Source: an uncultured Gammaproteobacteria bacterium | Lineage (GTDB): Bacteria; Patescibacteriota; Patescibacteriia; Buchananbacterales; UBA6539 | NCBI GenBank assembly: GCA_964540635.1 | Contig: CAZINP010000002.1 | Coordinates: 20,963 to 84,962, forward strand | DNA: 64,000 nt | Direction: 5' to 3' | Shown here: one piece after another, positions 3,339-44,785 of the stretch | How positions within the stretch are numbered: the stretch's first letter is position 1 | Layout: each line of letters opens with the position of its first letter | Position numbers and translations under genes: made by a program | The notes under the pieces: model-generated | What the model saw: the letters and a program-made list of their open reading frames with translations, nothing else | Told to the model about the DNA's origin: nothing | The model's database searches: none

Positions 3339-3809
3339 ATGTTTGTTAAAATAAATAAAGCCGGCCTATTTTTATTTCTAAGTTTTTTGTTTTTTATATT
3401 TTACCAATTGTCAATGGCACTTGTTTCCTCGATTTCATTTTTAGATTCTTCTGGCTTGTTGGGTAAAATTTTGGTTTGTTTTTCACTTTTGATTTTAGCT
3501 TTTTCACCATTATCATTTATCTTGTTTTTGGTCTTTGCAGTTTTCATTAAAACCCCCAAAAAAGCCAACCTTGGTGATTCGAAACCAACCCCGATACAAC
3601 CTAGGAAAATCAATAAAGCAGGCCTATTTTTTATCTTGACGATCGTTTTTCTCTTGATTAATGGTTATTTTATTTCTCTTGGTTTGGCCCCGTCATCAGC
3701 GCCTAAGTTTTTGGATATTATACCTGCTTATTTCACCCCGATTATCCTTTTTGGCTTGCCAATTTCTTTTTGTTTATTTTTATACTTTTGGGCTTTCGGT
3801 AAAAAATAG
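3339..3809 (+). CDS. hypothetical membrane protein with internal duplication
   Basis: Two copies of an 'INKAGLF(L/F)...' hydrophobic module, at nt ~3346 and ~3605. Confidence 0.45.
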   Translation: MFVKINKAGLFLFLSFLFFIFYQLSMALVSSISFLDSSGLLGKILVCFSLLILAFSPLSFILFLVFAVFIKTPKKANLGDSKPTPIQPRKINKAGLFFILTIVFLLINGYFISLGLAPSSAPKFLDIIPAYFTPIILFGLPISFCLFLYFWAFGKK

Positions 3810-3842
3810 TTAAATTTTAATTAATCAACATAGCGCCATTTA

Positions 3843-4469
3843 TTGGCGCTTTTGTTGTATAAATTATTATTGTATATTATGTCTTTTAATTCAATAAAAA
3901 ATCAGCGTCGTTCAATTCGTTTGCCATATTTTGATTATTCCCAGGACGGTCAATATTTTATTACCATTTGTTCATTTGAAAAGAAAGATATTTTTTCACG
4001 GGTTGAAAATAATATATCAATTTTGAATAATTTTGGAAAGATTGTGGAGGAGGAGTTGTTAAATACCCAAAAAATTCGTAAAAACGTCATGATTGGTAAA
4101 TATGTTATCATGCCAAATCATATTCACGTAATTATCACAATTACCCGTGGTAGGGGCGCATTGCAATACGATTTTGCAACAAAAAATGGAAATCGTGGTA
4201 GGGGCGTATTGCAATACGCCCCTACGTTTGATTTTAATTACAAAAAAATATTTAAATCACCGTCGCAATCAATCGGTTCAATCGTGCGTGGTTTCAAATC
4301 AATTACCACCAAACGTATCAATATTATACGTCAAACCCCGGGCGTGCCGGTTTGGCAACGCAATTTTTACGAACACATTATTCGCGATGAAAATGATTAT
4401 CATCGTATTGTTGATTATATAAAATTAAACCCGGAAAAATGGCAATTTGACCGTAATTTCCGGAAATAA
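3843..4469 (+). CDS. REP-associated tyrosine transposase (RAYT, IS200/IS605 TnpA-like HuH)
   Basis: HuH motif 'MPNHIHVII' and C-terminal 'VWQRNFYEHIIRDENDYHRIVDYIKLNP' match the RAYT/IS200 family. Palindromic REPs lie inside and downstream of the ORF. The true start may be M13 (nt 3879). Confidence 0.75.
   Translation: MALLLYKLLLYIMSFNSIKNQRRSIRLPYFDYSQDGQYFITICSFEKKDIFSRVENNISILNNFGKIVEEELLNTQKIRKNVMIGKYVIMPNHIHVIITITRGRGALQYDFATKNGNRGRGVLQYAPTFDFNYKKIFKSPSQSIGSIVRGFKSITTKRINIIRQTPGVPVWQRNFYEHIIRDENDYHRIVDYIKLNPEKWQFDRNFRK
4146..4226. repeat. two tandem REP-like palindromic units inside the RAYT ORF (second is a perfect 28-bp palindrome GTAGGGGCGTATTGCAATACGCCCCTAC at 4198-4225)
   Basis: Direct reading: a self-complementary 28-mer beginning with GTAG; the first copy is degenerate on its right arm. 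Both are in-frame, encoding 'RGRGALQYDFATKNGNRGRGVLQYAPTF'. Confidence 0.8.
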
Positions 4470-4483
4470 AAAAACCGCCACAT

Positions 4484-4547
4484 CGGGCGATTAAATGTAT
4501 GGGCGAATTCATGTGCGGGCGTATTGCAATACGCCCCTACGCCCGAT
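4484..4547. repeat. REP-like element (nested palindrome; core GGGCGTATTGCAATACGCCC enclosed by ATCGGGCG...CGCCCGAT)
   Basis: Same core palindrome as at 4198-4225; an outer 8-bp inverted repeat flanks it. Confidence 0.75.
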
Positions 4548-4600
4548 ATTAATTATGGAAAATTTTTTAAATAATCCTAATAATTTTAACAAATAAAAAA

Positions 4601-4650
4601 ACGCCCTATCGGGCGAATTCATGTGCGGGCGTATTGCAATACGCCCCTAC
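4601..4650. repeat. REP-like element (second copy of the ~43-bp unit ATCGGGCGAATTCATGTGCGGGCGTATTGCAATACGCCCCTAC)
   Basis: Near-identical to 4487-4540, preceded by the small hairpin CGCCCtatcGGGCG; it abuts the stop codon of the minus-strand ABC-F gene. Confidence 0.75.
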
Positions 4651-6114
4651 CTAATATTTCGTTAAATCAATTGTCTCATCGATGCGAATCTCTTTCACAA
4701 AATCCGGCATATGCGAAACCATGATCATGGCACCGTCATAATCATGAATGGCTTTGGCAATTATTGGAATGTGGCGAAAATTTATGTGATTGGTCGGCTC
4801 GTCTAAAATCAATAATCCCGGTTTCATCAAAACCAAACGGGCAAACGACAATAAGCCTTTTTGGCCCTCGGATAAATCTTTAATTTTATTACCCATCAAA
4901 TTGCCGGTAATCAAAAATCCGGCGGCAACTGAACGCATTTTTTCTTCGTTTATCACTTCGTCGGTATTTAAAGCACAAGCGCTTTTTAAGGAATCAAAAA
5001 CCGTTTGTTCAAAATCAAGGTGGGAAAAATCTTGGCTGTAATAGCCAACCACGACTTTGGGTGTGATGGTGGCGCCGTGCGATTTGCCGGCTACCAAACT
5101 GCGCAAAAAAGTGCTTTTACCCGCGCCGTTTGGGCCGGAAACTAAAACATGCATTTTCTTACGCACGGTCAGCTCAATATCTTTTTGCAAAGGCTGGTGG
5201 CCATAAAAAGTCAAAACCGATTTAATTTCCACCACCGGGCCAATTACGTTTTGCGCTTCAATTTGAAAATCGCGAATTGTTTTATCTTCTTTTCTGACAT
5301 CAACCATGCTTTCTTCAAGTTCCTCGGTTTCTTCCTTGAGCTTTGAGGCCAGCTTTCTCATCTTACCGCCTTTATTGGCAAAGAAATTAACTTTTTCTTT
5401 TCTATCCTTGATTAATTTCTGGGCGCGGGCGTTTTCCATTCTTTCGCGCTCAATGCGCGCAGCAATTTCTTCTACCACGGTATAGTAATCGCCATTATAT
5501 GTTTCAATTTTGTGGGTATGAACATCAAGATAAATAACGCCGTCGGTAAAACAATTTAAAAAATCGGCATCATGAGAAATAACAATCACAGTTTTTTCGT
5601 ACATGCACAAAAAAGTAATCAAGTGGTCAATCCCGGCTTGATCTAAATTATTAGTCGGCTCATCCAAAAGCAAAATATCCGGATCTTGAATTAAGGCATA
5701 AGCCAAAAGTAAGCGCGCTTGCTGGCCGCCGCTCATCTCACCGACTTTTCTTTCAAAGGGAATGGACAGATTGACGGCATCCATAACCTTGCTAATTTTG
5801 CTTTTTAGATTACCCGGTACCGGGTTGAAAGCTTTGGCAAAGTATTGCTCCAAGGTCAAATCAAAGTCGGCTCTACCCAAGGTTTGAGGTGCCGCACCAA
5901 TGCTGGCGTTATTAGTAACTGAAATTTGGCCTTTTTTTGGTTTGAGCTGGCCCTGCATTAAAGCAAAAATTGTGCTTTTGCCGGCGCCGTTTTGGCCCAT
6001 CAAAGTGATTTTAGAACCACGGCGCACGCTAAAACAGGCCTCGTCCAAAAGCGGTTTATTGTATGAATATTCAAATGTGACCTCGTTAAAACGCAGGATG
6101 ACTTCTTCTGGCAT
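4651..6114 (-). CDS. ABC-F family ATPase (tandem ABC domains, no TMD)
   Basis: Two Walker A motifs ('GQNGAGKST', 'GPNGAGKST'), two signature motifs ('LSGGQ', 'LSEGQ') and two Walker B motifs ('LLLDEPTN', 'LILDEPTN'). Confidence 0.8.
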   Translation of the reverse strand: MPEEVILRFNEVTFEYSYNKPLLDEACFSVRRGSKITLMGQNGAGKSTIFALMQGQLKPKKGQISVTNNASIGAAPQTLGRADFDLTLEQYFAKAFNPVPGNLKSKISKVMDAVNLSIPFERKVGEMSGGQQARLLLAYALIQDPDILLLDEPTNNLDQAGIDHLITFLCMYEKTVIVISHDADFLNCFTDGVIYLDVHTHKIETYNGDYYTVVEEIAARIERERMENARAQKLIKDRKEKVNFFANKGGKMRKLASKLKEETEELEESMVDVRKEDKTIRDFQIEAQNVIGPVVEIKSVLTFYGHQPLQKDIELTVRKKMHVLVSGPNGAGKSTFLRSLVAGKSHGATITPKVVVGYYSQDFSHLDFEQTVFDSLKSACALNTDEVINEEKMRSVAAGFLITGNLMGNKIKDLSEGQKGLLSFARLVLMKPGLLILDEPTNHINFRHIPIIAKAIHDYDGAMIMVSHMPDFVKEIRIDETIDLTKY

Positions 6115-16645: not shown

Positions 16646-16672
16646 AAATATCTCAAAGAGATATTCTTTTTT
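16646..16672. terminator. bidirectional intrinsic terminator at the 3' end of rnpB
   Basis: AATATCTCaaaGAGATATT with an A-run on one side and a T-run on the other. Confidence 0.55.
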
Positions 16673-17049
16673 GTCCAAGTAAACTAGTAAGCCGAATTCT
16701 GTTTTTTGGTTTGCACCAAAATGATGATCATCTATCTGGGATCAATGTTGCCATTGACCTCAAGCTGCCTACCTAATTTGGCATTGCACCTGGCAGGGGT
16801 TTACCACGCAGACCGTCACCGGTCATTCGCGCGTGAGCTCTTACCTCACGTTTTCAACCTTACCGTTCTCGCAAGCGAGACTTAGGCGGTATGTTTTCTG
16901 TTGCACTTGCCCTAAGCTTGGCAAAAATTCAGAAGTCTTAAGAACTTCTGGCTTTTTGTTACTCTCGGTTCCCGTTAGGAACTGCCTTTTTGTGGTGTTC
17001 GGACTTTCCTCTCCGACGAGTCGGAGCGATCATCTTGTTTACTTGGACA
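16671..17049 (-). ncRNA. rnpB: RNase P RNA, bacterial type A
   Basis: The reverse complement contains P4 strands 'GAGGAAAGTCCGAAC' (5') and 'ACAGAATTCGGCTTAC' (3'). It has a 'GGTAAGAGCTCAC...GTGGTAAACCCC' block (E. coli: GGTAAGAGCGCACC...GGTAAACTCC). P1 pairing is TGTCCAAGTAAAC / GTTTACTTGGACA. Length is ~379 nt. Confidence 0.85.
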
Positions 17050-36662: not shown

Positions 36663-36738
36663 GGGTCGTTAGCTCAGTTGGTAGAGCAGCAGCCTTTTAA
36701 GCTGATGGTCGCAGGTTCGATCCCTGCACGACCCACCA
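36663..36738 (+). tRNA. tRNA-Lys (anticodon TTT), 3' CCA encoded
   Basis: Cloverleaf GGGTCGT/ACGACCC; D-arm GCTC..GAGC; anticodon loop CTTTTAA; T-loop TTCGATC; preceded by a TTGCAA-17-TATTAT promoter. Confidence 0.9.
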
Positions 36739-42847: not shown

Positions 42848-42920
42848 AGCCAACGGTCGGAATCGAACCGACGACCACTCGCTTACGAAGCGATTGCTCT
42901 ACCGACTGAGCTACGTTGGC
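42848..42920 (-). tRNA. tRNA-Thr (anticodon CGT)
   Basis: Reverse complement GCCAACGTAGCTCAGTCGGTAGAGCAATCGCTTCGTAAGCGAG...GGTTCGATTCCGACCGTTGGCT; anticodon loop TTCGTAA. Confidence 0.85.
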
Positions 42921-42932
42921 ACACTAGTTCAA

Positions 42933-43004
42933 AGCGGGTGACCGGATTCGAACCGGCGATCTTCTGCTTGGGAAGCAGACATTCTACCACTGAACTACAC
43001 CCGC
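42933..43004 (-). tRNA. tRNA-Gly (anticodon CCC)
   Basis: Reverse complement GCGGGTGTAGTTCAGTGGTAGAATGTCTGCTTCCCAAGCAGA...GGTTCGAATCCGGTCACCCGCT; anticodon loop TTCCCAA. Confidence 0.85.
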
Positions 43005-44714: not shown

Positions 44715-44785
44715 TCGGGGATCGTCTAAGGGCAGGACAGCGGCCTTTGAAGCCGTTAATCGGGGTTCGAATCCCTGTCCCCGAG
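44715..44785 (+). tRNA. tRNA-Gln (anticodon TTG)
   Basis: TCGGGGA/TCCCCGA acceptor; D-arm GTCT/GGAC; anticodon stem-loop GCGGC-CTTTGAA-GCCGT; T-loop TTCGAAT. Confidence 0.8.

Follow-up and report, generated by a model that had tools for sequence, protein, structure and literature searches.

A probable REP/RAYT locus with an in-frame REP palindrome inside the transposase gene of a Buchananbacteria-like Patescibacterium

Within the 64-kb stretch of contig CAZINP010000002.1 that we analysed (termed the window throughout, and meaning that stretch at its full length), a gene for a REP-associated tyrosine transposase (RAYT, or TnpA_REP) lies convergent with an ABC-F gene, and repetitive extragenic palindromes (REPs) are found both inside it and directly downstream (Table 1). 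It is the only copy of a RAYT gene in the window. Because the N-terminus beginning at ATG 3879 aligns with homologues, the gene most likely starts there rather than at TTG 3843, the limit of the listed open reading frame (ORF). Homologues of the protein number 7488 at E<=1e-5, many of which were named 'REP element-mobilizing transposase RayT' by JGI.

The first-pass annotation had proposed a RAYT at this position, and this identity is supported by the HuH motif, Tyr180, the WQRN motif, the best match in NCBIfam and a fold match to E. coli TnpA_REP (4ER8). Using a 40-sequence alignment we found that both histidines of the HuH motif (H81 and H83) are invariant, and that the class-2 signature Y-x3-NP is present as Y180-IKL-N184-P185, equivalent to Y115...N119-P120 of 4ER8, with Y180 and N184 again invariant. 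Altogether, 22 of 22 invariant family residues are kept in the window protein, including H81, H83, W159, R161, N162 and Y180. The WQRN motif marks the start of the region that in E. coli TnpA_REP contacts the GTAG foot of the REP (residue roles from PMC6006769), and at the corresponding contact positions W159, Q160, Y164, E165, H166 and R169 five of six residues are identical to 4ER8, the sixth being an aromatic replacement (W99 to Y164). Likewise, an AlphaFold (AF2) model of the protein had an overall pLDDT of 81.6 with a core above 90, and its top fold match in the PDB, detected with Foldseek, was 4er8_A (E = 3.3e-7, TM 0.52/0.61), followed by IS200/IS605 transposases at ranks 2-30. By these features the RAYT gene looks intact.

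Further examination of the model showed that residues 93-127, which comprise the REP-encoded segment plus what comes after it, have a pLDDT below 50 and fall between the strand at 81-88 and the helix at 132-151, so that the insert is located in what is predicted to be a disordered surface loop. Both the HuH strand (81-88) and the Tyr helix (171-183) were confidently modelled, and the check on the Tyr helix that the first-pass annotation had suggested therefore gave an intact helix, with the insert confined to loop 93-127. In homologues the loop between strand beta3 and helix alphaC ranges from 9 to 77 amino acids (aa), compared with 43 aa in the window protein by the same measure, and in those that lack a REP it can be as short as 9-15 aa, which marks the segment as an addition to the family core. 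Alignment to 4ER8 showed it to be an in-frame addition relative to E. coli TnpA_REP as well, and the earlier description of the segment as an in-frame insertion holds on both comparisons.

Direct reading of the sequence recovered the 28-bp perfect palindrome GTAGGGGCGTATTGCAATACGCCCCTAC annotated at 4198-4225, which is formed of 14+14 nt arms, and its single-stranded form is predicted to fold into a hairpin of -13.5 kcal/mol (z = -6.0). The 20-nt core, GGGCGTATTGCAATACGCCC, starts at 4202, 4517 and 4627, the last two being the recurrences that had been pointed out before. No further copy of the core was detected in the 64-kb window with up to 3 mismatches allowed, and no recurrence was expected by chance (100 shuffles). 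The annotation had also described two REP units within the coding region; both are in frame, although only the unit at 4198-4225 is complete while that at 4150-4170 is incomplete, and the two are spaced by 48 bp (16 codons). The complete intragenic REP is followed by GTTTGATTTT, and together (4198-4235, plus strand) these were scored as resembling an intrinsic terminator on the coding strand, midway through the RAYT ORF; the T-rich tail after the intragenic REP is variable among homologues and may be due to chance in an AT-rich genome.

On the plus strand both REPs downstream of the gene read GTGC...CTAC, and they are therefore single-foot REPs with GTAG on the minus strand. They form part of a direct repeat that had been given as ~43 bp, which is present, with an exact part of 40 nt (4501-4540 = 4611-4650), and which itself belongs to a longer, diverged tandem duplication of about 4454-4540 versus 4581-4650. 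The RAYT gene is hence flanked by two GTAG-footed copies downstream and none upstream. In each duplicated unit (within 4454-4650) we recognised a degenerate RAYT 3' end, then a terminator-like hairpin and T-run on the minus strand, then a REP; unit A has an additional 16-nt internal repeat, GGGCGATTAAATGTAT. The hairpin in unit B is probably the terminator of the ABC-F gene. Two independent short-read Logan contigs that encode an identical RAYT protein (L201 and L202) both stop ~61 bp past the stop codon, within the first downstream REP, which suggests an assembly break at a repeat. On the other side of the gene, the interval between the RAYT start and an upstream membrane-protein ORF (3339-3809) contains a hairpin AGCGCCA-TTTAT-TGGCGCT followed by T-rich sequence (3832-3850), which resembles a terminator on either strand and has a similar counterpart 5' of the RAYT gene in a sister contig (L203, 2014-2028).

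Table 1. Coordinates of the features at the RAYT locus, numbered from the first letter of the window.
Feature	Position	Strand	Remarks
RAYT / TnpA_REP gene, 196 aa from ATG 3879	3879..4469	+	Listed ORF reaches up to TTG 3843
HuH motif N80-H81-I82-H83 (NHIH)	4116..4127	+	Aligned to HMH of E. coli TnpA_REP
REP-encoded loop R90-F117, RGRGALQYDFATKNGNRGRGVLQYAPTF, between strand beta3 (HuH) and helix alphaC	4146..4229	+	In frame
Incomplete intragenic REP GTAGGGGCGCATTGCAATACG	4150..4170	.	Left foot, left arm and centre; 1 mismatch; without right foot
Complete 'double-foot' REP, GTAG-GGGCGTATTGCAATACGCCC-CTAC	4198..4225	.	RGVLQYAPT frame
W159-Q160-R161-N162 motif	4353..4364	+	E165, H166 and R169 follow; from alignment to 4ER8 residues 93-123
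Catalytic tyrosine Y180 (Y-IKL-NP)	4416..4418	+	Invariant; aligned to Y115 of 4ER8
Terminator-like hairpin and T-run, in repeated unit A	4473..4492	-	
Downstream REP 1, single foot	4513..4540	-	GTAG on minus strand, GTGC on plus side
Terminator-like hairpin CGCCC-GATA-GGGCG and T-run, in repeated unit B	4602..4615	-	
Downstream REP 2, single foot	4623..4650	-	Abuts stop codon of convergent ABC-F gene (TAG directly followed by GTAG, minus strand)

We examined whether the palindrome is present in other genomes by scanning one genome per species for the 20-nt core, which gave at least 120 loci (L001-L120) that include, among the matches listed, about twenty phyla and candidate divisions. Among these matches are Cyanobacteria, Planctomycetes, Omnitrophota, Atribacterota, Sumerlaeota, Ignavibacteria, Nitrospirota, Chloroflexi, Zixibacteria, Bacillota, Deinococcota and Acidobacteria, together with the Kuenen-, Falkow- and Peregrinibacteria of the Candidate Phyla Radiation (CPR). 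Across 131 copies of the core in this set, GTAG is found on one flank in 109-122 and CTAC on the other in 110-124 (83-95%), and conservation drops to background just outside these feet, with no flanking gene sequence; the sharp end indicates that the unit is a discrete 28-mer. Several genomes in the set have many copies. Of the 120 loci listed, none overlaps the window and only about 7 have a RAYT homologue within 8 kb, which means that the majority of copies are dispersed. The GTAG feet and the dispersal of the 28-mer in other genomes bear out the earlier reading of the palindromes as REPs. An artefact or adapter origin was considered and ruled out, as the 28-mer lies in frame within ORFs and occurs both in metagenome-assembled genomes (MAGs) and in assemblies that carry no MAG label (Trichormus, Capnocytophaga canis and Dolichospermum). 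At one locus (L136, 7030 bp) a locally dense cluster was observed, with seven copies of the REP core GGGCGTGCGCGGCACGCCC in 7 kb around a RAYT homologue. In addition, 46 of 135 dispersed core copies among the matches listed lie within stop-free stretches of >= 120 codons, reaching 1675 aa in L029 and 1041 aa in L068, and could represent REPs inserted in frame into other genes.

REPs are generally held to be lineage-specific. Sharing of one exact 28-mer between very distant phyla seems unusual for such elements, and it extends to the RAYT genes themselves: identity to the window protein is only 40-48% for the RAYTs of Salinibacteraceae, Zixibacteria, Bacillota and Anaerolineales, and the identical 28-mer is present in the genes from Salinibacteraceae, Zixibacteria and Anaerolineales; the one from Bacillota keeps the 20-nt core unaltered and differs once in the left foot. 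In the literature that we searched we found no statement on cross-phylum conservation of the 28-mer and no paper containing the 28-mer or its peptides. Likewise, within the portion of the supplementary-table REPs of Quentin et al. 2018 covered here the exact 28-mer was absent, the nearest entry being GTAGGGGCGTATTGCATACGCCC of 'BtreA01' (PMC6006769).

Three frames run through the palindrome, of which one holds TAG and the other two encode RGVLQYAPT or VGAYCNTPL. In the 40-sequence alignment RGVLQYAPT is the consensus, and this majority is what favours a reading of the segment as a conserved functional peptide, with the extragenic palindromes as by-products or gene fragments. However, some homologues have VGAYCNTPLR or VGAYCDTPLH at this position, which is the same DNA in the other frame, and among the 120 closest homologues we counted 84 with GVLQYAPT-like peptides, 13 with GAYCNTPL-like, 12 with other REP-type and 11 with none. 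Fetching the DNA for homologues picked by protein alone (organism names as in the source records) showed the 28-mer beneath the peptide, without mismatch in Stahlbacteria and Chloroflexi, with 2 mismatches each in Armatimonadetes and Buchananbacteria, and with 1 in a further record that uses the VGA frame; a single DNA sequence is used out of ~10^5 possible encodings. The first-pass annotation had allowed for relatives that carry the same segment without palindromic DNA, and what we observed instead is palindromic DNA in the homologues, read in two frames. Other clades have unrelated peptides and different palindromes of the same design, with this design of the DNA alone in common, the region is predicted to be disordered, and the dispersed copies end sharply at the 28-bp unit. 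We consider the peptide explanation highly improbable, and it was rejected on the use of one DNA in two frames and on the different palindromes of other clades.

A wider sample of the family gave a similar picture. Using protein motifs we found 80 metagenomic loci, and their loops were extracted with tblastn and MAFFT. A perfect-armed hairpin is present in the same loop in 55 of the 80 homologues when the criterion is a loose one, requiring a GTRG foot and, after it, perfect arms of 8 nt. The strict criterion, a double-foot palindrome, was applied to 89 genes, made up of the metagenomic genes, the RAYT genes among the pattern-matched loci and the window gene, and is satisfied by 48 of these; they contain 35 distinct sequences, in which the arms change together and thereby compensate. 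The VGA..PL frame is used by 27 of the 48 genes, the RG..APT frame by 21 and the stop frame by none. Use of both stop-free frames across the family shows that it is the DNA palindrome, and not a peptide, that is maintained. Of 23 loci that have extragenic GTRG hairpins close to an internal REP, 12 use one and the same 8-nt arm in both, and several more have closely related arms.

Extra partial left arms in tandem are present in many homologue loops, as they are in the window. At one locus (L126, 560-1963) there are two tandem RAYT paralogues whose loops have different double-foot REPs, GTAGGGGCGACCGGCCGGTCGCCCCTAC and GTAGGGGCAATTCATGAATTGCCCCTAC, and the second paralogue has five tandem partial left arms. 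Very long loops (L174, 6001-6639; also L146, L156, L195 and L200) are built up of partial REP arms repeated many times in tandem or of short repeats rich in proline; in L174 roughly twelve NVGxT or NMGxT units precede the full palindrome.

The host and the age of the insert were assessed from the neighbouring gene and a related genome. The ABC-F protein is 86% identical to a protein of Candidatus Buchananbacteria, with the next matches from Patescibacteria, which agrees with the earlier guess of a CPR-like genome and, on this sequence likeness, identifies the host as a Buchananbacteria-like Patescibacterium. A sister Buchananbacteria contig (L203, 2037-2959) encodes a RAYT homologue that is 61% identical, full-length and alignable throughout with the window protein, and again convergent with an ABC-F gene. 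Its loop shows the same incomplete-plus-full REP arrangement as the window, and its internal palindrome, GTAGGGGCGTATGGCAATACGCCCCAAC, differs from the 28-mer by two substitutions; no REPs flank the sister RAYT gene within 12.6 kb. As this arrangement is common to both genomes, the insertion is evidently not recent and is judged to be older than the split of the window and sister lineages, and the sister sequence indicates that an internal REP can decay while the ORF stays full-length. The sister locus also has an 82-aa GIY-YIG ORF between the RAYT and ABC-F genes, and recA is located upstream where the window has membrane-protein ORFs.

These observations bear on the second outcome that the first-pass annotation had offered, namely a RAYT recently inactivated by REP insertion that merely looks intact. 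The open frame over its full length, the 22 of 22 invariant residues, the core modelled at pLDDT >90, and the same insert architecture in the sister genome and across the family, which is old and compatible with long-term retention, make this improbable, even when set against the weak hidden Markov model (HMM) scores of the protein, the lack of REP copies beyond the locus in 64 kb, and the reduced nature of CPR genomes, in which such a system might be getting lost. A pseudogene as the main explanation was ruled out by the intact invariant residues and the architecture common to the sister genome. The other outcome, an in-frame REP that is tolerated, is supported, while recent inactivation is not, given an insert that is old and residues that are intact.

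We therefore interpret the locus, at a probability of roughly 0.85, as a REP/RAYT locus ('REPtron') of TnpA_REP subclass 2.4 (equivalent to RAYT Group 4) in a Buchananbacteria-like Patescibacterium, with a REP tolerated in a loop of the transposase, the subclass being assigned from its motifs, length, insert and double-foot REP. In this interpretation the gene would encode an intact-looking HuH/Tyr single-strand DNA endonuclease-ligase which, if it works like E. coli TnpA_REP, would attach to the hairpin that a REP forms in single-stranded DNA, recognise its GTAG foot, and then cleave and religate the DNA by way of a 5'-phosphotyrosine on Y180, with the metal ion held by the HuH histidines. 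Its cognate REP would be the 28-bp double-foot palindrome, present as one full and one incomplete copy in the beta3/alphaC loop, and this loop, being disordered, at the surface and variable in length, would be the site where an insert survives selection. The simplest account of the partial tandem copies would be slippage or recombination at the hairpin, and the downstream copies would occupy a typical REP position, between convergent genes and beside a terminator.

Several points weigh against this interpretation. No REP copy was detected beyond the locus in 64 kb, and the abundance and mobility of REPs in this host are unproven, while catalysis, REP binding and transposition by the window protein are presumed from E. 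coli. The sole NCBIfam match, NF047646 REP_Tyr_transpos, has a score of 72.8 bits against a curated cut-off of 80, with the insert splitting the match in two, and the Pfam Y1_Tnp score is 23.2 against a cut-off of 23. In addition, mere tolerance alone fails to explain a perfect loop palindrome in ~70-90% of the family.

This last point leads to the main alternative, in which selection, beyond mere tolerance, maintains the intragenic REP as a cis-acting element, which we hold to be unlikely, though clearly less so than an inactivated gene. Its candidate roles, to which the same tentative standing applies jointly, are an autoregulatory mRNA or single-stranded DNA hairpin, an attenuator within the gene, or a template that travels with the gene and seeds REPs anew once it has been horizontally transferred. 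A cis role would fit the retention of the palindrome to within 0-2 mismatches over its 28 positions despite a drop in protein identity between phyla to about 40-60%, its presence in most family members, the compensating arm changes that preserve palindromy, and the published description of such insertions as 'predominant' and unique to subclass 2.4 (PMC6006769). The window hairpin, followed by GTTTGATTTT and terminator-like in score on the coding strand, would fit a cis role too, although in homologues the peptides behind the REP do not conserve the T-rich tail. Against selection, 25 of the 80 homologues have no perfect internal hairpin and 11 of these 25 still have REP hairpins nearby, so an internal copy is not required for extragenic copies; the idea of the internal REP as an obligatory master copy is weakened by the same count. 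Likewise, the internal copy of the sister genome has decayed by 2 nt within a full-length ORF, and repeated re-copying from extragenic REPs would equally keep the palindrome perfect. If the cis-element alternative were true, a transposase family would have kept its own 28-bp substrate in its coding sequence across about twenty phyla.

Elsewhere in the window we detected a bacterial class A RNase P RNA (220 bits) and four tRNA genes, at 16672-17045 (-), 36663-36735 (+), 42848-43004 (-) and 44715-44785 (+).

Returning to the interpretation as a subclass 2.4 locus with a tolerated REP, its place among known systems is set by the survey of Quentin, Siguier, Chandler and Fichant 2018 (BMC Genomics 19:475, PMC6006769), which divides TnpA_Y1 proteins into subclasses, with subclass 2.4 corresponding to RAYT Group 4 of Bertels, Gallie and Rainey 2017 (PMC5581495). 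Subclass 2.4 is characterised by NH[IFV]H, WQ and YIxNNP motifs and a median length of 194 aa, and was recorded in Cyanobacteria, Bacteroidetes and various phyla (PMC6006769, Table 1). In-frame REP insertions between the HuH and Tyr motifs are called 'predominant' and unique to this subclass, its REPs can be 'double foot' (GT[AG]G...C[TC]AC), and the published model places the insertions in a peripheral extension, while other REP-rich RAYT subclasses never have an intragenic REP (PMC6006769). REPs inside RAYT genes receive no mention in Nunvar et al. 2010 or Di Nocera et al. 2013 (PMC3733652). An in-frame REP, which the first-pass annotation had taken to be unusual, is thus a published, typical trait of subclass 2.4 (PMC6006769), and in this respect the locus is an ordinary member showing an already published hallmark.

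The additions made here are modest and consist of the CPR host, the evidence from two frames and the cross-phylum identity of one 28-mer. No paper on REP/RAYT systems in CPR was found in the literature searched, and a 2026 preprint that names both RAYT and Patescibacteria concerns an archaeal locus and was set aside as not relevant. The published oddity of a RAYT gene with its own REP in frame is hereby extended to reduced CPR genomes, and the published picture is sharpened in that both open frames are used and that the exact 28-mer is present in RAYT genes and in dispersed copies of very distant phyla. If the internal copy is functional, it would offer a handle on the control and spread of poorly understood domesticated transposases.

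Compared with subclass 2.4 in detail, the window protein has the NHIH and W159-Q160 motifs, a length of 196 aa against about 194 aa, and a variable beta3/alphaC insert made of in-frame REP DNA with a double-foot GTAG...CTAC palindrome at 4198-4225, and it shares the presence of REPs beside the gene and a patchy distribution over phyla. It differs in its Patescibacterium (CPR) host, as against the Cyanobacteria, Bacteroidetes and 'various phyla' given in the 2018 survey, in its Y motif, which is YIKLNP (L183 for N) against the consensus YIxNNP that many close homologues retain, and in having REPs downstream of the gene only and not on both sides.

E. coli TnpA_REP (YafM; 4ER8; Messing et al. 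2012, PMC3479197; Ton-Hoang et al. 2012) has the fold in common with the window protein (Foldseek E = 3e-7), together with the HuH motif, Y115 and N119 as equivalents of Y180 and N184, and identical residues at W94, Q95, E100, H101 and R104, and its substrate is a GTAG-footed hairpin, as would by analogy be that of the window protein. The two are only ~19% identical, however, belonging to subclass 2.2 and 2.4, respectively, the E. coli beta3/alphaC loop is short, and E. coli REPs are imperfect, bulged and single-foot, occur in hundreds of copies and never lie within the gene. The REPIN-RAYT systems of Pseudomonas (Groups 2 and 3; Bertels and Rainey 2011, PMC3116915) similarly combine a tyrosine transposase gene, single-copy there and present once in the window, with short dispersed GTAG palindromes. 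Their mobile unit is an inverted REP doublet that is lineage-specific, extragenic and present in hundreds of copies, whereas the window has a single 28-bp double-foot palindrome of apparently low copy number, with one copy intragenic.

TnpA of the IS200/IS605 family (IS608 and ISDra2) shares the HuH/Y1 fold and recognises subterminal hairpins in single-stranded DNA, but these are true insertion sequences whose hairpins flank the gene and move along with it, while the hairpins of the window are independent short repeats and the gene is without sign of self-copying. Finally, the intragenic GTAG/CGTC REPs and the Rickettsia RPEs (Di Nocera et al. 2013, PMC3733652) resemble the insert described here in that a short palindrome in frame adds a tolerated peptide; those elements hit unrelated genes, among them genes of DNA replication and repair, whereas the gene that hosts the window palindrome is that of the REP's own presumed enzyme, and it does so family-wide.

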